A DNA stretch of 64,000 nucleotides from Escherichia phage vB_EcoM-G3F7. Below the pieces are notes generated by a model, which did not search any database, had not been told where the DNA came from, and saw only the letters and a program-made list of their open reading frames with translations. The stretch lies in the sequence record MZ234035.1. One strand, 5' to 3'. Position 1 is the first letter of the stretch. Each line of letters opens with the position of its first letter. Shown one piece after another: positions 2,017 to 36,665 of this stretch. The position numbers were made by a program, and so were the translations under genes.

Positions 2017-2424
2017 ATGAAACAGTTGATAATTAAAAGATTGAATTTATTGATATGTTGTTTATGTATAGCAATTGCATATGGTTATTACGCAATTAAT
2101 GATTATATGCATTATAAAGATTATGATGTTACTGTAGTTAATACCATTACAGGAACACAAGGAAAAGGGTCTAGTTTATCGTTTATTGCCGTATATGAAC
2201 TCAAAGATGGTTATAGATTTAGTGAATATATTTCCCCAGAGATGTATTCATCAATAGAAAAAGGTGATAATATTACTGTAAGTTTACGTCCTTTCGACGT
2301 AAAACAGACATTGTTTGATAATATTGTTTGGTTCTTTGGAATGGTATTAGTTCAATCTGTGTGTGGTGCTTATATAGTCTGTTCCATCTTATTCTGTATA
2401 TTTAGTAAAATTGAAATTGAGTGA
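2017..2424 (+). CDS. hypothetical membrane protein
   Basis: 135-aa ORF with hydrophobic Cys-rich segments at both ends. Confidence 0.5.
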   Translation: MKQLIIKRLNLLICCLCIAIAYGYYAINDYMHYKDYDVTVVNTITGTQGKGSSLSFIAVYELKDGYRFSEYISPEMYSSIEKGDNITVSLRPFDVKQTLFDNIVWFFGMVLVQSVCGAYIVCSILFCIFSKIEIE

Positions 2425-2431
2425 GGAAAAT

Positions 2432-3319
2432 ATGTCAGTAGTAATTAATAATGTCAATGCAGTAATTAAATCTTTAGTTAATAAAAAATTAAATGAATGG
2501 ACTGTACTTCGTCGTGGAGAGCCAGATAAATTTTTTCATAGATTTAACCCAACTTTGGATTTGAATGTTATTGACAGAGATGTTCATGCTGAAATTTTAG
2601 ATAAATTTAAAGTTGATATTGGGTTTGGGTTAGATAAACATTTGCAACGAACAAACGGATCTGGAATGGGTTTATCTAATCGCATCATGAAAGCCCTTAA
2701 TAAAATTGGAGCGTTGTCTCGTATTAATGCGAGTGAAATCCTTCGCAATTATAATAAAGGATATGACCTTTATGGTCGACTAATGCCGAAATTATCATTT
2801 GACCAAATGATTGCGGATTTGTGGGAAAATCAACGACGATTATTAGCATTAGGCGCTCGATTAGCTAAAGGTCTAGATAAACAAATGATTTTTAAGACCA
2901 ATAATACAGAAGACCTTAAATGCTTTAAATTTAGTACTCGTGGAGATGATTATTACATCAGAGCTCGCTCTACAGATTATGTTAATATGGGGCATCATCT
3001 CTGTTTAGCTTTTGAAGTTTTAAAAGAAGCCGGAACATTAGAATATGTGTCTGGTGCTAAATGTCCGATTGGTTCAAATTGCATTTTAATTTATCGCCCA
3101 GATGAATCCAGTTCAACTAAATTACCTACAAAACCTGTACCAGTTCGCAGTAATGAAAAACATTCTGAACAAATTGCTTATTTTAATAAGCAGATTGAAG
3201 AGCTAAATATTTCTATTCAGCAATATGATGATGAAATTTTCAGACTATCTGGATTGAGTAGTAAAGCTAAATCTGAGCGTGAAAAATTAATTAAAATCGT
3301 TGATTTACTTAAATCTTAA
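2432..3319 (+). CDS. hypothetical protein with C-terminal coiled coil (paralog A)
   Basis: ATG at 2432 after GAGGA RBS; C-terminal heptad-rich tail. Confidence 0.55.
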   Translation: MSVVINNVNAVIKSLVNKKLNEWTVLRRGEPDKFFHRFNPTLDLNVIDRDVHAEILDKFKVDIGFGLDKHLQRTNGSGMGLSNRIMKALNKIGALSRINASEILRNYNKGYDLYGRLMPKLSFDQMIADLWENQRRLLALGARLAKGLDKQMIFKTNNTEDLKCFKFSTRGDDYYIRARSTDYVNMGHHLCLAFEVLKEAGTLEYVSGAKCPIGSNCILIYRPDESSSTKLPTKPVPVRSNEKHSEQIAYFNKQIEELNISIQQYDDEIFRLSGLSSKAKSEREKLIKIVDLLKS

Positions 3320-7797: not shown

Positions 7798-8283
7798 ATG
7801 ATTACAGTAGATAAGTGGTTTAGAATTAATCGTGTTGATACAGGGCTATGTAATTACTGGCCGGAACTTAGTGCAGGTACTGTCTTTAAAGTTCGTGAAC
7901 TTGCAAAAGAATGCGAAGATGATATAGAACCTGATACTGGAATTATTGAAATTGAACTTTCCGACGGAAAGATTATTAACATCTATGATAAGCCAATTAC
8001 ATACTGGTGTTTGTGGAATACTGAATCCGTTGAAAATGGCGAAATTGAAGAAGTTGTAGAGAGAACTAGCCAAGATGTTCAGAAGCCTAAAGCCGCTTTT
8101 CAAGGTGAACGTATTTCATACGCATTAGCTAAATTAGCTGCGCAAGAAAATAACGATGGCTATGAAGGTAACCTGATGCAAGCTGCCGCAGAGTACATTG
8201 AATGGCTTGAAACTCAAATTTCTTTTTCTGACCAAAAGATTCGGCAATATAAGCGATTGCATCAAATGTTTTACAATACTTGA
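7798..8283 (+). CDS. pin: Lon protease inhibitor Pin-like protein
   Basis: 161 aa from ATG 7798; position between nrdC and gene 49 as in T4. Confidence 0.5.
   Translation: MITVDKWFRINRVDTGLCNYWPELSAGTVFKVRELAKECEDDIEPDTGIIEIELSDGKIINIYDKPITYWCLWNTESVENGEIEEVVERTSQDVQKPKAAFQGERISYALAKLAAQENNDGYEGNLMQAAAEYIEWLETQISFSDQKIRQYKRLHQMFYNT
8236..8283 (+). repeat. direct repeat copy 1 (3' end of pin)
   Basis: About 46 nt highly similar to 8449-8496. Confidence 0.6.
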
Positions 8284-8319
8284 AAAAACTCAAAATTCTT
8301 TTTCTGACAGGACATTTTA

Positions 8320-8496
8320 ATGAAAACCGAATTGGTTTATACTGAAAAGTTAAATGGCGGTAAGGTTTGGAAACTTTTTATTAAAGGACATTCTACGGAC
8401 CCTCATATGACCACTTGCGTAGGAACCTATTCTCGTCCTACTAAAAAGATGATTCGACAGTATAAACGATTGCATCGAATGTTTTACAATACTTAA
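8320..8496 (+). CDS. small ORF sharing duplicated C-terminal tail with pin
   Basis: 58-aa ORF ending IRQYKRLHRMFYNT, near-identical to pin C-terminus. Confidence 0.35.
   Translation: MKTELVYTEKLNGGKVWKLFIKGHSTDPHMTTCVGTYSRPTKKMIRQYKRLHRMFYNT
8449..8496 (+). repeat. direct repeat copy 2 (3' end of small ORF)
   Basis: Near-identical to 8236-8283 with a 3-nt insertion and a few substitutions. Confidence 0.6.
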
Positions 8497-8539
8497 AAAT
8501 AATAAATACCCTTATCTATTTAAGGTAAGGGTATTTATT

Positions 8540-9013
8540 ATGTTATTGACTGGCAAATTATACAAAGAAGAAAAACAAAAATTTTATGATGCACAAAATG
8601 GTAAATGCTTAATTTGCCAACGAGAACTAAATCCTGACGTTCAAGCTAATCATCTTGATCATGACCATGAATTAAATGGACCAAAAGCAGGAAAGGTACG
8701 TGGATTGCTTTGTAATCTCTGCAATGCTGCAGAAGGTCAAATGAAGCACAAATTTAATCGTTCTGGCTTAAAGGGACAAGGTGTTGATTATCTTGAATGG
8801 TTAGAAAATTTACTTACTTATTTAAAATCCGATTACACCCAAAATAATATTCATCCTAACTTTGTTGGAGATAAATCAAAGGAATTTTCTCGTTTAGGAA
8901 AAGAGGAAATGATGGCCGAGATGCTTCAAAGAGGATTTGAATATAATGAATCTGACACCAAAACACAATTAATAGCTTCATTTAAGAAGCAGCTTAGAAA
9001 GAGTTTAAAATGA
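8540..9013 (+). CDS. 49: endonuclease VII (Holliday junction resolvase)
   Basis: 157 aa; Cys/His zinc-site pattern; matches T4 gp49 as recalled. Confidence 0.85.
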   Translation: MLLTGKLYKEEKQKFYDAQNGKCLICQRELNPDVQANHLDHDHELNGPKAGKVRGLLCNLCNAAEGQMKHKFNRSGLKGQGVDYLEWLENLLTYLKSDYTQNNIHPNFVGDKSKEFSRLGKEEMMAEMLQRGFEYNESDTKTQLIASFKKQLRKSLK

Positions 9014-10827
9014 CAATTGAAAAAGAAATTGAAGGATTGATTCATAAAACTAATAAAGACCTTTTAAACGAGAATGCTAATAAAGATTCTCGTGTTTTTC
9101 CAACTCAACGGGACCTTATGGCTGGTATTGTGTCTAAACACATTGCCAAAAATATGGTCCCGTCTTTTATTATGAAAGCGCATGAAAGCGGAATTATTCA
9201 TTTCCATGATATTGATTATTCCCCTGCTCTTCCATTTACTAATTGTTGTTTAGTAGATTTAAAAGGAATGCTTGAAAACGGATTTAAGCTTGGTAATGCA
9301 CAGATTGAAACTCCTAAATCAATTGGCGTTGCTACTGCAATTATGGCGCAAATTACTGCACAGGTTGCTTCTCACCAATACGGCGGAACGACTTTTGCTA
9401 ATGTAGATAAAGTACTTTCTCCTTATGTTAAACGCACCTATGCAAAACATATTGAGGATGCAGAAAAATGGCAAATCGCTGATGCGTTAAATTATGCTCA
9501 ATCTAAAACAGAAAAAGATGTATACGATGCATTCCAAGCTTATGAATATGAAGTAAATACTCTCTTTAGTTCAAACGGACAGACTCCTTTTGTAACAATT
9601 ACATTTGGTACGGGAACTGACTGGACTGAACGAATGATTCAGAAAGCAATTCTGAAAAATCGTATTAAAGGTCTCGGTCGTGATGGGATAACTCCTATTT
9701 TCCCTAAGCTTGTTATGTTCGTTGAAGAAGGCGTTAATCTTTATAAAGACGATCCGAACTATGATATTAAGCAGCTTGCTTTAGAGTGTGCAAGCAAAAG
9801 GATGTATCCTGATATTATTTCAGCTAAGAACAATAAAGCTATCACCGGCTCATCTATTCCTGTTTCTCCAATGGGTTGCCGCAGTTTCTTGAGCGCGTGG
9901 AAAGATTCAACCGGTAATGAAATTCTTGATGGACGTAATAATCTTGGTGTTGTAACACTGAATCTTCCTCGTATTGCGTTGGATTCTTATATTGGAACAC
10001 AGTTCAATGAACAGAAATTTACTGAATTGTTCAATGAGCGAATGGATTTATGTTTTGAAGCTTTGATGTGTAGAATTAGTTCCTTAAAAGGAGTTAAAGC
10101 GACTGTTGCTCCTATTCTTTACCAAGAAGGTGCATTCGGGGTTCGTCTTAAACCTGATGACGACATAATTGAGTTATTTAAAAACGGTAGAAGTTCAGTG
10201 TCTTTAGGATACATTGGTATTCATGAATTGAATATTCTTGTCGGTCGTGATATTGGACAAGAAATTTTAACTAAAATGAATGCTCGTCTTAAACAGTGGG
10301 CTGAAAGAACTGGGTTTGCTTTTAGTTTGTATTCGACTCCTGCTGAAAACCTTTGTTATCGCTTCTGTAAACTTGATACAGAAAAATATGGAAGTGTAAA
10401 AGATGTTACCGATAAAGGATGGTACACTAACAGTTTCCATGTTTCAGTAGAAGAAAATATTACTCCGTTTGAAAAGATTTCTCGCGAAGCCCCATATCAT
10501 TTCATTGCGACAGGTGGTCACATTTCTTATGTTGAACTTCCTGATATGAAAAATAACCTAAAAGGTCTTGAGGCTGTCTGGGATTATGCTGCACAACATT
10601 TAGATTATTTTGGTGTTAATATGCCAGTAGATAAGTGTTTTACATGCGGAAGTACCCATGAAATGACTCCTACTGAAAACGGATTTGTTTGTTCTATTTG
10701 TGGAGAAACTGATCCTAAAAAGATGAACACAATAAGAAGAACATGCGGCTATCTTGGAACTCCTAGCGTTGTTCCATGGAATTTAGGTAAAATGAAAGAA
10801 ATGGTAAAACGAGTAAAACATGCATAG
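9010..10827 (+). CDS. nrdD: anaerobic ribonucleoside-triphosphate reductase NrdD
   Basis: 605 aa uninterrupted; C-terminal glycyl-radical motif RRTCGYLG and CxxC...CxxC zinc ribbon. Confidence 0.92.
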   Translation: MTIEKEIEGLIHKTNKDLLNENANKDSRVFPTQRDLMAGIVSKHIAKNMVPSFIMKAHESGIIHFHDIDYSPALPFTNCCLVDLKGMLENGFKLGNAQIETPKSIGVATAIMAQITAQVASHQYGGTTFANVDKVLSPYVKRTYAKHIEDAEKWQIADALNYAQSKTEKDVYDAFQAYEYEVNTLFSSNGQTPFVTITFGTGTDWTERMIQKAILKNRIKGLGRDGITPIFPKLVMFVEEGVNLYKDDPNYDIKQLALECASKRMYPDIISAKNNKAITGSSIPVSPMGCRSFLSAWKDSTGNEILDGRNNLGVVTLNLPRIALDSYIGTQFNEQKFTELFNERMDLCFEALMCRISSLKGVKATVAPILYQEGAFGVRLKPDDDIIELFKNGRSSVSLGYIGIHELNILVGRDIGQEILTKMNARLKQWAERTGFAFSLYSTPAENLCYRFCKLDTEKYGSVKDVTDKGWYTNSFHVSVEENITPFEKISREAPYHFIATGGHISYVELPDMKNNLKGLEAVWDYAAQHLDYFGVNMPVDKCFTCGSTHEMTPTENGFVCSICGETDPKKMNTIRRTCGYLGTPSVVPWNLGKMKEMVKRVKHA

Positions 10828-11650
10828 GTATTATATAATTTATAAAATAACAAATATAATTAATTCAAAGGAATATATCGGTGCGCATAGCACCGATAAC
10901 ATAAATGACGGTTATATGGGGTCAGGAACATTGATTCGTGCCGCTTTATTAAAATATGGTAGAAAAAATTTTAATAAAGAAATTTTACATGTTTTTGATA
11001 ATGAAAAACAAATGTATGATAAAGAAGCTGAACTTGTAACCGAAGAGTATTGTCTAAAAGAAAATACATATAATATTAAACCTGGTGGAAAAGGTGGAAC
11101 TGCTTATGAACAGACACTTGAACATCGCCACAAAAATAGTTTAGCAAATAAAGGTAAAAAGAAAACAGCAGAAACTAAAATAGCTATTTCACGTGCTTTA
11201 AAGAAATATAAACGTACACCAGAGCATCAAGCAAATTTAAATAAAGCTGTAAGCATAGCTATGAAGCGAAAAGATGTTAGAAGTAAATTAGTTGGAGAGC
11301 GGTCTGAGAAAGATAAATTATCTATATCAAACGGTGTTAAAAAATATTACAATTCTTTGAGCGAAGAAGAACGCGAACTTCATCGCAAGCGAATTATTGA
11401 AGGTAAAAAGAATTCTCCCATGTCATTGGAATCTAGACAAAAGCTTTCAAAAGCTTTAAAAGGACTTCAAGTTGGTTCAAAAAATCCAATGTATGGAAAA
11501 ATTTCTCCAACTAGTAAAACCGTTTCAGTTGACGGTATTAAATATGATTCAATTAAAAAGTGCTCAAATGCCATAAAAGTTTCTAGACATCTTATACTGA
11601 AACGCTGTAATTCTACTGATGAAGCTTGGAAAAATTGGATATTATTATGA
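10820..11650 (+). CDS. free-standing GIY-YIG homing endonuclease (Seg-like)
   Basis: 276 aa; N-terminal IIY...(10 aa)...YIG motif; basic C-terminal half; overlaps nrdD stop and nrdG start. Confidence 0.8.
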   Translation: MHRYYIIYKITNIINSKEYIGAHSTDNINDGYMGSGTLIRAALLKYGRKNFNKEILHVFDNEKQMYDKEAELVTEEYCLKENTYNIKPGGKGGTAYEQTLEHRHKNSLANKGKKKTAETKIAISRALKKYKRTPEHQANLNKAVSIAMKRKDVRSKLVGERSEKDKLSISNGVKKYYNSLSEEERELHRKRIIEGKKNSPMSLESRQKLSKALKGLQVGSKNPMYGKISPTSKTVSVDGIKYDSIKKCSNAIKVSRHLILKRCNSTDEAWKNWILL

Positions 11651-12118
11651 ACTATGACAGAATATACCCGTGCTGCTTTGTGAATGGTCCTGGATGCAGG
11701 ACCGTTCTTTTCGTTACAGGTTGTTTGCATAAATGCGAAGGGTGTTATAATAAATCAACATGGAATGCTAGAAATGGTATTCCATTCACTGGTGAAACAC
11801 TAGAACAATTAATTGAATGTTTGAATAATGATTATATAGAAGGATTAACTATAACCGGAGGTGACCCTCTTTATCCTGATAACAGAGACGTGATTCATTG
11901 CATCGTTCAAACAGTAAAAAAATCTTTATCCCAATAAAAGCATTTGGTTGTGGACAGGATATAAGTTTGAAGATATTAAACAACTAGAAATGCTTAAATA
12001 TGTTGATGTTATTATTGATGGAAAGTATGAGAAAAATCTTCCGACTAAAAAGCTGTGGCGAGGATCAGATAATCAGCGACTTTGGTCAAATACCTATGGG
12101 GTGTGGAAACATGATTAA
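11647..12118 (+). CDS. nrdG: anaerobic RNR activating protein NrdG, apparent +1 frameshift
   Basis: Radical-SAM CxxxCxxC (GCLHKCEGC) part stops at 11935-11937; conserved C-terminal part continues in +1 frame to 12118. Confidence 0.8.
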
Positions 12119-12238
12119 ATTGAATTATATTATATTATGGATACTATAAATGATATGATTTTTCATTTTGGTCCAGAATTTTATTCCCAATATAGTTTAG
12201 TGCTTATCAATGCTTGGTTAATTAATTAAGGGTAAAAT

Positions 12239-12454
12239 ATGTATAAATTTCGTAAAGGTTTAGCTGATTTTCTTACAACTGTAACATTCTTTCTGTTTAT
12301 GGCAGTTGGAGCTATTTTCCTTATTCCTTTTATTGCTATATTTTTCGTGATTAGTTTAATTTCTCCAGAAAAGGGCTTATCTTCTAGTGAGTTTAATGAG
12401 CGTCTGGATAAAATTACTAACAAGCTGAATGCTGTTCTTGATAAAAAGGCTTAA
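12239..12454 (+). CDS. hypothetical membrane protein
   Basis: 71-aa ORF with one long hydrophobic helix. Confidence 0.45.
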   Translation: MYKFRKGLADFLTTVTFFLFMAVGAIFLIPFIAIFFVISLISPEKGLSSSEFNERLDKITNKLNAVLDKKA

Positions 12455-12456
12455 TT

Positions 12457-12768
12457 ATGATTAGTTTTGAGCGGTATGTAGTAGAGAGTTGGAATGGTTT
12501 TGATATGTTCGGTAATGACTATTATTTCTATGAATGTAGTCTGAACCCAAGCTTCTGGGCTGGACGTGAACAAGACCTCGAAGAAATCAACGCTCGTGCC
12601 GATTTGTTAGGTGAACTGCCTACTACTTATTTCACCTTTGATGAATCCGGCTTCGTTATCCAGGTTTATTTTCCTGAAGAAAACTCTGGTGAGGATTCTG
12701 TTAATCCTCCTTATTGGGCTTACCAAGGAATTATTTCTCGTGGAACAAAACTCGAACTTAAAGAATAA
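12457..12768 (+). CDS. hypothetical protein
   Basis: 103-aa ORF, acidic. Confidence 0.5.
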   Translation: MISFERYVVESWNGFDMFGNDYYFYECSLNPSFWAGREQDLEEINARADLLGELPTTYFTFDESGFVIQVYFPEENSGEDSVNPPYWAYQGIISRGTKLELKE

Positions 12769-13063
12769 GATTGAAGTCTATGGAATTCCAGATGAAGTAG
12801 GTCGTTGTCCTGGATGTCAATCAGTTACAAAACTTCTAAAGGAGCTCAATGCTCCTTTTACTTTCTATAAAGTTCTTACAAATAATGGTAAGATTGAGTA
12901 TGATCGTCCACTGATTGTATCTCTTGCTAAACGCGCTGGATTCACATCTCTTAGCATTCGTTATCCAGTCATTTTCATTAATGATTCTAGACAAAAGAAC
13001 ATTAAACACTTCAAAGAAACTCTCATTTCACTTGGATATGATAGAGATATCATAGAAGACTAA
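12740..13063 (+). CDS. nrdH: glutaredoxin-like protein NrdH
   Basis: CPGC redox motif; start uncertain (GTG 12740 after AAGGA, no in-frame ATG near N-terminus). Confidence 0.55.
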   Translation: MEQNSNLKNKIEVYGIPDEVGRCPGCQSVTKLLKELNAPFTFYKVLTNNGKIEYDRPLIVSLAKRAGFTSLSIRYPVIFINDSRQKNIKHFKETLISLGYDRDIIED

Positions 13064-13066
13064 GAC

Positions 13067-13090
13067 GGGCCCTCTGGGCCTTTCTTTCTC
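13067..13090 (+). terminator. intrinsic terminator after nrdH
   Basis: GGCCC-TCT-GGGCC hairpin followed by TTTCTTTCTC. Confidence 0.55.
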
Positions 13091-13160
13091 ACATTCTGTA
13101 TATTACCATTCTAAGCTATCGTTCCCTTCTTATCATTCCCTAAAATAATTTCACAAAGTT

Positions 13161-13190
13161 GTTTACAACAAGTTCAAACTGTGGTATTAT
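13161..13190 (+). promoter_or_regulatory. T4-type early promoter
   Basis: GTTTAC, 18-nt spacer, TATTAT; A/T-rich upstream element. Confidence 0.6.
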
Positions 13191-13220
13191 TAACATATGA
13201 ATTGCCTTTGAGGATTTGAT

Positions 13221-13403
13221 ATGGTTGTGGTTGATAAAGAGATTAAAAAGGGACAATATTATTTTATTAATGGTAATGTTGTTCGTGTTACTTATGTAAA
13301 CGGTTTTGAAGTTTATTATCTTATACTCAAGTTACATAAACAGATGATTTGTGATCGTGCTGTATTTAGTTCAGTTGCTAAGGAAATTAAACTCCATGGG
13401 TAA
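13221..13403 (+). CDS. hypothetical protein
   Basis: 60-aa ORF downstream of early promoter 13161-13190. Confidence 0.35.
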   Translation: MVVVDKEIKKGQYYFINGNVVRVTYVNGFEVYYLILKLHKQMICDRAVFSSVAKEIKLHG

Positions 13404-13689
13404 AACGTATCGTCGTAAAGATTTAAAAGTACGTGATTATGACTATTTCGGAAAGCGTAAAGCTCCTGATGGTGTAAGTCATAAAGATATGGTTGAAAAC
13501 ATTTTTCGCTCTGATAAATGGCGTAGAATGAAAGGCATTGATTCAGAAGTTAAAGATGAGCTAAATCGTCAATTACGTAGTGAAGTAAGAAAGTTGAAAA
13601 AATCAGTTTACATTGACGATGATTTTGATTACAATACTTCTCAACGAGTTGCTAAGCGCAAATCAAACGAGTGTTATCGTTATAGCTGA
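13396..13689 (+). CDS. hypothetical basic protein
   Basis: ATG at 13396; about 97 aa, Arg/Lys-rich. Confidence 0.45.
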   Translation: MGKTYRRKDLKVRDYDYFGKRKAPDGVSHKDMVENIFRSDKWRRMKGIDSEVKDELNRQLRSEVRKLKKSVYIDDDFDYNTSQRVAKRKSNECYRYS

Positions 13690-13828
13690 GGAAAATATGA
13701 ATATCAAACGCATGCTTTTTAAGCAAGGGCTATATACTTTAAATGCTACTCCAAAAGGAGATACAACTAAGTGGTTAGTAAATGACTGGATTAAATTTAT
13801 TGATGAAAATGGTAATTGGGAAATTTAA

Positions 13829-14029
13829 ATGAATCCTGAATCTAAATTATCGCAGCGAATTGCTGAAGAACGCGCCAAATTTTTCCAGAACATGAAACAC
13901 AATGGTATTGAGGATGAAGTTTTTCTAAATTGGTTCTGGAATAATAAGTATGCAGCATGCGAAGGAGCTTTGTCATTGTCAGTCGCAATGATGTACGAAG
14001 GCTGGAAGGGTGCCAAAAAGTTTAGCTAA
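13829..14029 (+). CDS. hypothetical protein
   Basis: 66-aa ORF ending at terminator hairpin 14029-14047. Confidence 0.45.
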   Translation: MNPESKLSQRIAEERAKFFQNMKHNGIEDEVFLNWFWNNKYAACEGALSLSVAMMYEGWKGAKKFS

Positions 14030-14047
14030 GGGCTTCGGCCCTTTTTG
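14029..14047 (+). terminator. intrinsic terminator (UUCG tetraloop)
   Basis: AGGGC-TTCG-GCCCT followed by TTTTT. Confidence 0.7.
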
Positions 14048-14081
14048 GATAATAAAATTTTAATGCAATTGAGGATAATGT

Positions 14082-14408
14082 ATGACTATTCAAATTAAAA
14101 ACGCCATCAATTCTTACGCATATGATAAAGTAGTTTCTCTGCTAGAAAAAGGCGATATTGTAACTCCTCAAATTTTGGATAAATGGGAAAAAGAGCTTCA
14201 TCAGACGATGAAACAGAATGATCAGAAGATTGGACGCAATACTGTCCGTGAATTGTTGGTTCAATATATCTTGTCAGAATTTGATGTTAAAGCTTTTGGT
14301 GTAGAATCTAAAGCTTATCAAAAGCATGAAATTTCCGATAAAACTATTCGTCGTATGAAAAATCAACGCAAGAAAAAATTTGCAGACCTGAAAATTACTA
14401 AGGTATAA
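14082..14408 (+). CDS. hypothetical protein
   Basis: 108-aa ORF with RBS. Confidence 0.5.
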   Translation: MTIQIKNAINSYAYDKVVSLLEKGDIVTPQILDKWEKELHQTMKQNDQKIGRNTVRELLVQYILSEFDVKAFGVESKAYQKHEISDKTIRRMKNQRKKKFADLKITKV

Positions 14409-14410
14409 TT

Positions 14411-14626
14411 ATGAACGAAGCTCTTATTAACGATTTGCGTCTTGCCGGATATGAAGTAAATACAAATGGCATTGGTTTAACTCAAATTGAAGGAAACGGA
14501 TTCATCCTTGAGTATGAATTTAGCCAATGGTGGTTATATGCCAATTACGGCGAATTGATTGAATATGTTGACCAATTTGATTCACTAGATGCAGCTCTTG
14601 AAGCGGCTAAGTTGATGAATGTATGA
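14411..14626 (+). CDS. hypothetical protein
   Basis: 71-aa ORF. Confidence 0.5.
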   Translation: MNEALINDLRLAGYEVNTNGIGLTQIEGNGFILEYEFSQWWLYANYGELIEYVDQFDSLDAALEAAKLMNV

Positions 14627-14892
14627 AATTAATTAATATTTCTATTGCTATTGAAAATTTTGGTATTTTCTATGTTGACCAATACATGAAAATTTCATTT
14701 TTCCCAAATAAAACTGGTGTTGGATATTGGGAAAGCCATGTTTCTGAATTAAATGAAAGTGAATATGTTAGTACACATAAAAAGTTTTTAGACTTTTTAT
14801 ATCGCGCTGATATTAATGATCATTACATAGATATTCATGAATTTAAAAAGATGATGGAGAAAGTGTTCCAAGCATACTGCTTACTTAGATAA
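14623..14892 (+). CDS. hypothetical protein
   Basis: 89-aa ORF; ATGA overlap with upstream ORF. Confidence 0.5.
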   Translation: MKLINISIAIENFGIFYVDQYMKISFFPNKTGVGYWESHVSELNESEYVSTHKKFLDFLYRADINDHYIDIHEFKKMMEKVFQAYCLLR

Positions 14893-35482: not shown

Positions 35483-35998
35483 ATGCCACATTTCAACGAA
35501 TGTAGTCAACTGATCGAAGGCGCTGATAAAGCTCAAAATGAATATTGGGATATTCTCGGTGATGAAAAAGACCCGCTGCAGGTAATGCTTGATATGCAGA
35601 AATCTTTACAGATTCGTTTAGCAAATGACCGCGAATACTGTTATCATCCAGATAAATTAGAAACTGCCGGTGATGTTGTTTCTTGGATGCGTGAACAAAA
35701 AGACTGTATTGATGATGAATTCCGCGAACTTCTGACTTCTCTTGGTGAAATGTCACGTGGTGAAAAAGATGCATCGGCAGTTTGGAAAAAATGGAAAGCA
35801 CGTTATATTGAAGCGCAAGAAAAACGCATTGATGAAATGTCCCCAGAAGATCAGCTCGAAATTAAATTTGAGCTTGTGGATATATTTCATTTCGTATTAA
35901 ATATGTTTGCTGGCCTTGGAATGAATGCGGAAGAAATCTTTAAACTTTATTATTTGAAAAATAAACATAATTTTGAACGTCAAGATAATGGGTATTAA
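35483..35998 (+). CDS. 56: dCTP pyrophosphatase gp56 (MazG-like)
   Basis: 171 aa; matches T4 gp56 length; MotA-box promoter upstream. Confidence 0.85.
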   Translation: MPHFNECSQLIEGADKAQNEYWDILGDEKDPLQVMLDMQKSLQIRLANDREYCYHPDKLETAGDVVSWMREQKDCIDDEFRELLTSLGEMSRGEKDASAVWKKWKARYIEAQEKRIDEMSPEDQLEIKFELVDIFHFVLNMFAGLGMNAEEIFKLYYLKNKHNFERQDNGY

Positions 35999-36662
35999 AC
36001 AAAAATTTTATAGAACATATATCGTAAAAGTTAGGACGCCGAAAGGCGTCTTTTGGTACGCTGGGAAACATGAATCATTTATTGTAAATCCATATGATGA
36101 TAAATATCCGGGGTCAGGCAAAATACTATGGAACATATATCGTAAGTATGGTTTTAATTATAAAATACGTTGGTCAAAATGCCATGGTTCTAGAGAAAAA
36201 TCATATGAAGTTGAACGCGAGCTAATATCTGCATTAAAACGTAAACACCCAGATACTTGCATTAATATTTCTCCTGGTGGTCAGGGTGGAGAAGGAAGAA
36301 AATGGACTGAGCAACAACGATTAGAACATAAACTTAGATTAAACAATCCTGAAACAAAAACTCGGATGAAGAATTCACAACGTATAGCCCAAAATAGAGC
36401 AGAACGAAAAGCTCGGCAATCTGAAGTAATGAAAAAGTTTTATTCGAATGGCGGAAATAAAAAGATTTCAGAAGGAACTTCAAGGGCGCAAAGAAAAGCG
36501 CCGCATTGGCATGAACCGCTTAAAAGCGAAATACATGAGTTATGGGTTTCTTTAGGTAAACCAGCAACAGGCCCGGTTGTAAAGGCGCTTAAAGGAAAAT
36601 ATGATGTAACAAGTTCAGCTCTTAAGAATTTAATTTACTTATTCAGAAAAGAAGATGTATAA
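35988..36662 (+). CDS. segF: GIY-YIG homing endonuclease SegF
   Basis: 224 aa from ATG 35988; GIY-YIG-like N-terminus; between 56 and soc as in T4. Confidence 0.8.
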   Translation: MGIKQKFYRTYIVKVRTPKGVFWYAGKHESFIVNPYDDKYPGSGKILWNIYRKYGFNYKIRWSKCHGSREKSYEVERELISALKRKHPDTCINISPGGQGGEGRKWTEQQRLEHKLRLNNPETKTRMKNSQRIAQNRAERKARQSEVMKKFYSNGGNKKISEGTSRAQRKAPHWHEPLKSEIHELWVSLGKPATGPVVKALKGKYDVTSSALKNLIYLFRKEDV

Positions 36663-36665
36663 ATA
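36658..36665 (+). promoter_or_regulatory. late promoter motif for soc
   Basis: Exact TATAAATA about 30 nt upstream of soc ATG, overlapping segF stop. Confidence 0.55.

Follow-up and report, generated by a model that had tools for sequence, protein, structure and literature searches.

A segH homing endonuclease gene between nrdD and nrdG of a Tequatrovirus and its probable spread by homing

The window analyzed here is a stretch of 64,000 nucleotides of Escherichia phage vB_EcoM-G3F7 (MZ234035.1), a Tequatrovirus, in which a 276-aa ORF, assigned below to segH, lies at the junction of the genes nrdD and nrdG. The ATG of this ORF (10820-10822) is inside ATGCATAG, where the nrdD stop codon TAG occupies 10825-10827, giving an overlap of 8 nt. 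At its other end, the TGA (11648-11650) is merged with the nrdG ATG (11647-11649) as ATGA, giving an overlap of 4 nt. The position and both overlaps are those described in an earlier note made from the sequence alone. The features of the locus are as follows:

9010..10827, plus strand: nrdD, large subunit of the anaerobic ribonucleotide reductase, a continuous ORF of 605 aa
10746..10827, plus strand: diverged 3' tail of nrdD, with 35 of 82 bases different from phage UTI-E2
10820..11650, plus strand: segH, ORF of 276 aa, homing endonuclease gene (GIY-YIG family, free-standing)
10820..11104, plus strand: predicted GIY-YIG catalytic domain, aa 1-95 (fold model, Foldseek and invariant residues)
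11105..11494, plus strand: predicted helical linker, aa 96-225, with repeats of the NUMOD3 type (Pfam and fold model)
11495..11638, plus strand: predicted C-terminal I-TevI-like DNA-binding domain, aa 226-273 (Pfam and Foldseek)
11647..12118, plus strand: nrdG, activase, frameshifted and in two ORF pieces
11652..11736, plus strand: diverged 5' head of nrdG, with 12 differences from UTI-E2, 11 of them in 11652-11694
11916..11922, plus strand: A7 homopolymer, cause of the nrdG frameshift (A6 in T6, PM105 and UTI-E2)

In the nrdD product, the Pfam NRDD domain spans residues 21-604 (1.3e-171), and Gly_radical is matched at 7e-25. T4 nrdD is interrupted by 1,035 bp at a point corresponding to about 9546 of the window. 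Within this insertion are the core of a group I intron (Rfam RF00028, 105 bits) and an ORF of 258 aa, given as I-TevII in the T4 gene table (PMC2988022). The RF00028 match came from a longer T4 locus; a T4 segment beginning within the intron gave no match. Neither the intron nor its ORF is present in nrdD of the window, and the Rfam scan of 8000-14700 matched no family. The earlier account of nrdD as an uninterrupted gene of 605 codons, and of T4 nrdD as the carrier of a group I intron with its own endonuclease, thus holds on both counts. The possibility that segH is an intron-encoded endonuclease was rejected, since no intron was found around the ORF in the Rfam scan and the ORF overlaps both neighboring genes. 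I-TevII is also a GIY-YIG enzyme that targets nrdD (PMC2988022), but it is encoded within its group I intron, and the segH site is about 1.3 kb further downstream.

The ORF product is identical to SegH of phage T6 (ABI48947; GenBank AY262137) at 272 of 276 amino acids (99%) with equal length, and the four substitutions (A42S, A117E, E118K and T231S) are all conservative. The segH gene of RB3 (AY262138) is 98.6% identical in nucleotide sequence, and the phrog_314 family 'homing endonuclease' matches the ORF at 4e-59. In T6 and RB3 (AY262137 and AY262138), the gene occupies the same position and overlaps its two neighbors in the same way, and the diverged nrdD tail is 100% identical, but the downstream nrdG of the window has a +1 frameshift. 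The element is already known: it was named in 2005 (Sandegren, Nord & Sjoberg, Nucleic Acids Res), and SegH is annotated in many T-even genomes, so that the discovery value is small. The title of that paper, as cited in the Edgell review (PMC2988022), describes a homing endonuclease. The gene is labeled 'homing endonuclease' in MZ234038 (vB_EcoM-G3F10) and 'segH' in the T6 (MH550421 and AY262137) and RB3 (AY262138) entries; the label 'segD', found on the same gene in records of RB3, RB5, RB6, RB7, RB9 and RB10, is corrected by the present analysis.

An AF2 model of SegH had a mean pLDDT of 82.9, with aa 1-95 at pLDDT 94-98 and the linker (aa 96-225) modeled as a string of helices at lower pLDDT. 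The best Foldseek matches were 1mk0 and 1ln0, the catalytic domain of I-TevI (probability of 0.99-1.00 and TM of 0.59-0.64 on target), and the C-terminal part of SegH matched 1i3j_A, the DNA-binding domain of I-TevI on DNA (probability of 1.00). The catalytic and DNA-binding domains of I-TevI were the only PDB matches at a probability of about 1 in this structure search; PDB chains searched with the SegH sequence gave nothing meaningful. No variation occurs among 40 homologues at Y8 (Tyr of 'GIY'), Y19 and G21 (Tyr-x-Gly of 'YIG'), E69/E71 (catalytic Glu) and N85 (conserved Asn), the signature residues of the GIY-YIG superfamily. The conserved GIY-YIG arginine does not fall in a single alignment column, and R40 is a candidate for it (Q in KM16). 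The model predicts that the N-terminal 95 amino acids of SegH adopt the GIY-YIG alpha/beta fold.

The search with GIY-YIG and NUMOD profiles proposed in the earlier note was borne out in its NUMOD part, as Pfam NUMOD3 matched aa 200-228 with 28.1 bits, above the cut-off of 20.4. The GIY-YIG part was not: the general model PF01541 had no match, PF19835 (SegE_GIY-YIG) stayed at 18.6 bits (cut-off 25) and TIGR01453 at 47.3 bits (2.5e-12; cut-off 56.05), so that none of these curated profiles was above threshold for SegH. The Pfam I-TevI_DNA-bd match was also sub-threshold (E of 9.5e-4). Since PF01541 or PF19835 is present in many of the listed SegH homologues (33-66% identity), the sub-threshold scores point to a divergent subfamily and not to absence of the domain. 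The linker and C terminus have the make-up of an I-TevI-like DNA-binding module, with a NUMOD3 motif and an I-TevI-type C-terminal domain.

The identity to T6 SegH and the fold match to I-TevI agree with the earlier assignment of the ORF as a free-standing, Seg-type GIY-YIG gene. In SegH, as in I-TevI of the T4 td intron, a flexible linker joins an N-terminal GIY-YIG catalytic domain to a DNA-binding domain at the C terminus. However, I-TevI is intron encoded, the identity is about 23-26% over the aligned domains, and its linker is shorter than that of SegH, which has several NUMOD3-like repeats. Among the T4 SegA-G genes, which like segH are free-standing, encode GIY-YIG proteins and lie between conserved genes of the phage, segB and segE are the closest parallels: segB is about 68% identical to the first ~260 nt of segH, and the SegE-type GIY-YIG domain is the weak Pfam match of SegH. 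SegA-G differ from SegH in locus, target and C-terminal half. The window has a further gene of this kind, a segF-like one, at 35973-36662. The full length of the ORF, its 99% identity to a named SegH and its intact signature residues argue against an inactive, vertically inherited remnant kept through its position in the nrdD-nrdG operon, a reading that could draw on the sub-cut-off Pfam scores for the GIY-YIG and DNA-binding domains and on the 'ND' entries for activity of T4 mobA-D and segD (table in PMC2988022).

We then surveyed 837 phage records with the locus, 677 of which span both flanks. The nrdD/nrdG junction carries segH in about 70 of the 837 records and the HNH gene mobC in 32, and most of the 677 have an empty junction. 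The site is also empty in UTI-E2 and G4498, which are phages of the same species, and segH shows a presence/absence polymorphism among close relatives. This distribution is not the one that the earlier note had set against mobility, namely, the same gene in all relatives. MobC of T4 is likewise free-standing at this junction and overlaps its neighbors, but it is an unrelated HNH protein of 210 aa that opens with a duplicated nrdG start (MNYDRIY...); its activity is listed as 'ND' (PMC2988022). In some phages, the nrdD tail of the segH type is found together with mobC. With the diverged nrdD tail and nrdG head also flanking mobC, endonuclease genes may have replaced one another in series at this site.

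The informative comparator for the footprint of the cassette was UTI-E2; against G4498 and T6, identity in sliding windows across 24 kb gave too mosaic a picture to reveal a clean tract. On otherwise identical flanks, the difference between UTI-E2 and the window is confined to 10746-11736, which consists of the diverged nrdD 3' tail, segH and the diverged nrdG 5' head. The two phages match over the 1,126 bp before this cassette and over about 1,100 bp after it (to 12840), with two indels outside the cassette, one A plus one 5-bp. The diverged nrdD tail begins directly after the glycyl-radical motif RRTCGYLG and encodes ...GTPSVVPWNLGKMKEMVKRVKHA in place of ...GNPNERGFNLGKNKEIMHRVKHQ. Almost all of the 80 records with this tail also have segH; the tail appears to travel with the gene and may make the carrier genome resistant to SegH. 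The comparison with UTI-E2 suggests that segH was gained recently on an otherwise identical backbone, which also speaks against a vertically inherited remnant. Moonvirus KM16 is 88-97% identical to the window across 10700-11700, but only 59-85% in nrdD upstream and 60-77% in nrdG downstream of the cassette. This jump in identity suggests, from sequence comparison, transfer of the segH cassette across genera.

The phage line stems from a published breeding experiment of 20 pooled rounds with strong host-range selection (Loose et al. 2021, PMC8614997). Three of the four ancestors (CHD16UKE1, G3G7 and 101117BS1) have an empty nrdD/nrdG junction. The sole ancestor with segH is CHD94UKE2, a near-identical twin of the window, which contributed 1-11% of the progeny coding regions (PMC8614997). 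The segment 10746-11676 is present without a single difference in each of the six sequenced progeny, and this cassette is the only donor DNA common to the six. The conversion tracts have at least five different boundary structures in two recipient backgrounds: the left flank is of the recipient type again within about 15-90 bp in PM123 and PM136, and the right flank within about 12-18 bp in PM136 and PM133. These boundaries would place the break within the recipient interval corresponding to 10731-11688 of the window, and the breeding genomes could confine the break to some 135 bp around the junction. The presence of the minority parent's segH in six of six progeny is again at odds with an inactive remnant, and we regard that reading as highly improbable.

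The six progeny are not independent because of the pooled breeding rounds, and this shared ancestry, together with the strong host-range selection, would suit a reading in which the cassette reached all progeny by ordinary recombination and selection on segH or the linked nrdD tail, without homing. We consider it improbable, since nothing from the donor other than the cassette is common to the six and the tight crossovers, in five configurations and two backgrounds, resemble break-induced repair and not random recombination. To our knowledge, neither nrdD nor nrdG has a host-range function. Together with the UTI-E2 footprint and the identity jump in KM16, the progeny support the mobility proposed in the earlier note, and it is very probable that 10820-11650 is segH, a free-standing T-even GIY-YIG homing endonuclease gene that is spreading by homing.

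The nrdG gene of the window is in two pieces, 11647-11937 and a second ending at 12118, both of which match Fer4_12/Radical_SAM, and it is 472 nt long, compared with 471 nt in T6, PM105 and UTI-E2. The A7 run is 266-272 bp past the end of the segH ORF, where the earlier note had placed a frameshift (about 270 bp downstream). The A7 allele is also in CHD94UKE2 and the bred phage PM123, and is not in the remaining five progeny. The frameshift is heritable and was passed with segH to one progeny phage, PM123. A sequencing error is unlikely because the breeding-study genomes are Illumina MiSeq data (Loose et al. 2021, PMC8614997), the allele is in three separately assembled genomes, and it segregates as a marker. 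A programmed frameshift was also considered, and nothing was found in its support.

On balance, we favor a combined reading in which the breeding genomes are an unrecognized record of SegH homing, homing dragged a dead nrdG into PM123, and the diverged flanks form a separable immunity module. If homing did carry the frameshifted nrdG into PM123, loss-of-function alleles of its host gene could be spread by a selfish endonuclease.

In the proposed mechanism, segH would be co-transcribed with nrdD and nrdG. No T4 late-promoter consensus (TATAAATA) was found near segH, and the three in the whole window are below chance expectation; the sigma-70 promoter scan had fewer matches than shuffled sequences. 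Because segH overlaps the nrdD stop at its own start and the nrdG start at its own stop, low-level translation of SegH by coupling is probable. In a co-infection, SegH would bind the uninterrupted junction of a relative via the C-terminal I-TevI-like domain and the NUMOD3 linker, and, by analogy with its family, the N-terminal GIY-YIG domain would cut both strands near the junction. The 2005 work of Sandegren et al. is said to have demonstrated cleavage activity of SegH. Repair from the segH-carrying genome would then bring in segH and, on either side of it, the short diverged ends of nrdD and nrdG, as the comparative data show. The carrier would be protected from its own SegH by these diverged flanks and the split junction halves. 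The expected outcome is that a cassette of about 0.93-1.0 kb (from 10746 to 11676-11736) spreads in a non-Mendelian manner.

A main role of segH in phage benefit, either by excluding the markers of competitors or by local rearrangement or amplification, is extremely improbable. Such a role would be modeled on SegB, which is reported in a 2026 paper (PMC13096335) to promote amplification of anti-defense loci, and CHD94UKE2 does have a 55-bp tandem duplication adjoining segH. However, no feature of the window ties segH to a defense or anti-defense gene, the adjoining nrdG is broken and not amplified, and homing accounts fully for the pattern. Under homing, phage breeding for therapy would propagate homing endonuclease cassettes, and with them linked defects like the broken nrdG, whether or not they are of benefit, and the six bred genomes provide a free, high-resolution map of the SegH co-conversion tracts.

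On its sequence, the 276-aa ORF between nrdD and nrdG (10820-11650, plus strand) is segH. The encoded protein is identical to T6 SegH at 272 of 276 residues (ABI48947, GenBank AY262137.2, labelled 'SegH homing endonuclease'), and the DNA has 98.6% identity to RB3 segH (AY262138.2). A 2005 paper on SegH reportedly describes cleavage activity close to its own locus. The earlier note had placed a mobile Seg-type homing endonuclease gene at this junction; the finding is real and was rightly interpreted, and it concerns a known gene at a known place. The gene order at the locus is pin, a small ORF, gene 49 (endonuclease VII), nrdD, segH, nrdG and the 55.x genes. The length and position of the ORF were borne out, as were the two overlaps noted before: 8 nt with the nrdD stop, where the segH ATG lies within ATGCATAG and the TAG of this string is the nrdD stop, and 4 nt with the nrdG start, where the segH TGA and the nrdG ATG share ATGA. 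Translation of SegH could be coupled to nrdD.

We then analyzed the domains of SegH. The profile search suggested in the earlier note succeeded in part: NUMOD3 (aa 200-228) was above the Pfam cut-off, but the SegE-type GIY-YIG domain was sub-threshold, as was the I-TevI DNA-binding domain (aa 226-273). Of two further profiles, phrog_314 ('homing endonuclease') matched at 4e-59 and TIGR01453 ('group I intron endonuclease') at 2.5e-12, the latter under its cut-off. In a large protein collection, PF01541 and/or PF19835 were found in many SegH homologues with 33-66% identity over the N-terminal third, and Y8, Y19, G21, E69, E71 and N85 were invariant in 40 aligned homologues. Using this alignment as input, AlphaFold2 gave a model with a mean pLDDT of 82.9, residues 1-90 being at 94-98. 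When the model was compared with the PDB using Foldseek, just four matches had a probability near 1, namely the I-TevI catalytic domain (1mk0, and 1ln0 chains A and B) and the DNA-bound I-TevI DNA-binding domain (1i3j_A), and all remaining matches were at 0.10 or below. By its domain profiles, invariant residues and predicted fold, SegH is thus built like I-TevI: a GIY-YIG nuclease at the N-terminus, joined through a long helical linker of the NUMOD3 kind to a DNA-binding domain at the C-terminus.

The claim that nrdD is continuous here and interrupted in T4 also held. The window nrdD is a single ORF of 605 aa (9010-10827) with Pfam NRDD over its full length. Against it, T4 nrdD aligned in two blocks lying 1,035 bp apart in T4, with the break at about 9546 of the window. 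Within the T4 insert, Rfam recognized the core of a group I intron (RF00028, 105 bits), while across window 8000-14700 none of the Rfam families matched. The insert also has a 258-aa ORF consistent with I-TevII, an enzyme assigned to the nrdD intron in the T4 gene table (Edgell review, PMC2988022).

To delineate the segH cassette (the gene with its diverged nrdD 3' tail and nrdG 5' head, 10746-11736 at widest), we compared the window with UTI-E2, a phage of the same species with an empty junction. The two had zero differences in the 1,126 bp of nrdD 9620-10745, and over 11737-12840 they differed by two indels only: one additional A in the window at 11916, and ATTAT (5 bp) at 12124-12128. The remaining differences fell into two stretches, with 35 of the 82 bases changed at 10746-10827 and 12 bases changed at 11652-11736, all but one of these 12 lying no further than 11694. 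Overall, the nrdD-nrdG block differed in length by a net 823 bp between the window and empty-site phages. The diverged tail starts directly past the glycyl-radical motif RRTCGYLG and alters the nrdD C-terminus from NPNERGFNLGKNKEIMHRVKHQ to TPSVVPWNLGKMKEMVKRVKHA; the terminal RVKH has wholly different codons in the two types of tail. The empty-site sequence is well conserved, with 1-9 mismatches per 160 nt across nine empty-site phages, one a Gaprivervirus. SegH would cleave near such an empty junction, and the carrier genome would be protected by its diverged flanks and split junction.

The ATTAT indel, which also separates the window from CHD16UKE1, G3G7 and 101117BS1, is just past the nrdG stop in an ATTAT repeat run, where T6 gene 55.9 starts, and is common to PM105. 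About 35 nt inside nrdG there is a terminator-like hairpin (11682-11707, plus strand; GGTCCTGGATGCAGGACC then a T-run), which empty-site phages retain and which is annotated in Yersinia phage fPS-2 as a terminator.

Among 837 phage records with the nrdD/nrdG locus, 70 matched most of the segH-containing query and 32 had a T4-type mobC. A query constructed to represent the empty site, with 600 bp of nrdD fused to the 600 bp from nrdG onwards, was at least 80% covered in 677 records, and in a spread sample of these the large majority spanned about 1,197-1,205 bp, with nrdD running directly into nrdG. The segH-type nrdD tail was found in 80 records. The junction contains segH, mobC or neither in related phages, and occupancy varies even within the species, G4498 and UTI-E2 (Tequatrovirus gee4498) having empty sites. 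The GenBank records of RB3, RB5, RB6, RB7, RB9 and RB10 name segH 'segD' and begin it at an internal ATG (735 versus 831 nt; RB9 locus 1297-2031), and the RB9 record likewise annotates nrdG short; the label and the short starts are annotation errors, not biology.

The Salmonella phage KM16, a Moonvirus, was 59-85% identical to the window in the part of nrdD before the cassette and 60-77% in the part of nrdG beyond it, and identity rose to 88-97% over 10700-11700. Its SegH has 90% aa identity and sits at the same junction behind the same nrdD tail (KM16 locus 2201-3150). This jump at the cassette shows that the same cassette was transferred between genera.

T4 mobC occupies the same junction as segH but is an HNH gene (Edgell review, PMC2988022). 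In BCPEco_001, a segH-type nrdD tail is followed by mobC with no segH, and the nrdG head is partly segH-type (its locus 2001-2721). The joint is the 9-mer ATGCATAGG, common to both arrangements: in segH phages it includes the start codon of segH, and in empty and T4-type phages it falls within the nrdD tail. The tail match also stops at the nrdD stop in BCPSen_003, SHFML-11, BEU50, 215Ecol030PP and ELT1, two of which (BCPSen_003 and ELT1) are among the mobC matches. The combination of tail and mobC and the shared joint suggest that one endonuclease gene replaced the other at a single site, with which the title of the 2005 SegH paper agrees.

We also analyzed a published breeding experiment, in which four myoviruses (CHD16UKE1, CHD94UKE2, 101117BS1 and G3G7) were mixed and taken through 20 rounds of passage, after which six progeny were sequenced (Loose et al. 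2021, Antibiotics 10:1337, PMC8614997). CHD94UKE2 (MZ234031.1) is identical to window 10500-12200 save a 55-bp insertion, and vB_EcoM-G3F10 (MZ234038.1) matches this region at 100% with the same coordinates (megablast); both are Tequatrovirus genomes assembled with SPAdes from Illumina MiSeq reads (PMC8614997). Only CHD94UKE2 carried segH, the junctions of the other three ancestors being empty. The progeny backbones are mainly CHD16UKE1 and G3G7, and CHD94UKE2 contributed 1-2% of coding regions in PM105, PM107, PM108 and PM133, 11% in PM123 and 7% in PM136 (PMC8614997). SegH was over-represented in the progeny: it was present in 6/6, a count that carries no probability because the progeny are not independent samples, with zero differences from the window within 10746-11676. 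Sites distinguishing the ancestors gave the following tracts.

Donor (CHD94UKE2-type) tracts in the progeny, window coordinates
PM107 and PM108: donor 10101 to 11702
PM105: donor 10101 to 11702, and a second donor patch 12022-12223
PM123: donor 10746 to 11932, including the nrdG frameshift (A7); nrdG split
PM133: donor 10101-10647, recipient patch 10656-10731, donor again 10746-11688
PM136: left side patchy with a CHD16UKE1-type flank; donor 10728 to 11676

All progeny but PM136 had G3G7-type flanks, and over the 5.7 kb examined the sequence outside the donor tracts was recipient-type. The five configurations, in two recipient backgrounds and with boundaries tens of bases from the heterologous block, are as expected from repeated break-induced gene conversion. 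On this model, the break would fall in the recipient interval matching 10731-11688, which takes in ~95 bp at the 3' end of nrdD and ~40 bp at the 5' end of nrdG. The proposed mobility of the gene is supported by presence/absence polymorphism, cassette boundaries, inter-genus transfer and over-representation in the cross. Neither 'homing' nor 'endonuclease' occurs in the text of Loose et al. (PMC8614997), and our re-analysis is a modest, apparently unreported observation on a known gene.

The right edges of the PM133 and PM136 tracts are inside the hairpin at 11682-11707. The 55-bp insertion in CHD94UKE2 is a tandem duplication in the nrdG 5' end beside segH (its locus 1661-1715, repeating window 11660-11714) that covers this hairpin. 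It accounts for the entire length difference from G3F10 (167,922 versus 167,867 bp), was in 0/6 progeny, and may reflect either true heterogeneity or an error of assembly.

The nrdG frameshift, placed about 270 bp downstream in the earlier note, is a single extra A, giving A7 at 11916-11922 (266-272 bp past the segH ORF) versus A6 in T6, PM105 and UTI-E2. The A7 allele recurs in the Illumina genomes of G3F10, CHD94UKE2 and PM123, each assembled separately; the other five progeny lack it, as does UTI-E2 despite an otherwise identical backbone. It is therefore most likely a real, recent mutation inactivating nrdG. The allele is heritable, being common to CHD94UKE2 and the bred PM123; it is beyond the minimal cassette and was co-converted in some progeny only. 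The anaerobic reductase is dispensable in aerated culture.

Three other ORFs were seen in the window. A second free-standing Seg-like GIY-YIG ORF (35973-36662, plus strand, 229 aa) is directly 3' of gene 56 (dCTPase), overlapping its end, where T4 has segF; the 3' end of the ORF carries TATAAATA, a late-promoter consensus (36658-36665). Between pin (ORF end 8283) and gene 49, a 58-aa ORF (8320-8496, plus strand) ends in IRQYKRLHRMFYNT, nearly duplicating the Pin C-terminus IRQYKRLHQMFYNT. Present in CHD16UKE1 and G3G7 and not in T6 or G4498, it looks like another small insertion with a second copy of the end of the gene upstream. The stretch 12440-12770, with a 103-aa ORF (12457-12768) similar to RB69ORF082c per the RB14 annotation, is missing from T6, G4498 and RB18, and the window has it in common with UTI-E2, RB14 and fPS-2, another presence/absence difference, adjoining nrdH.
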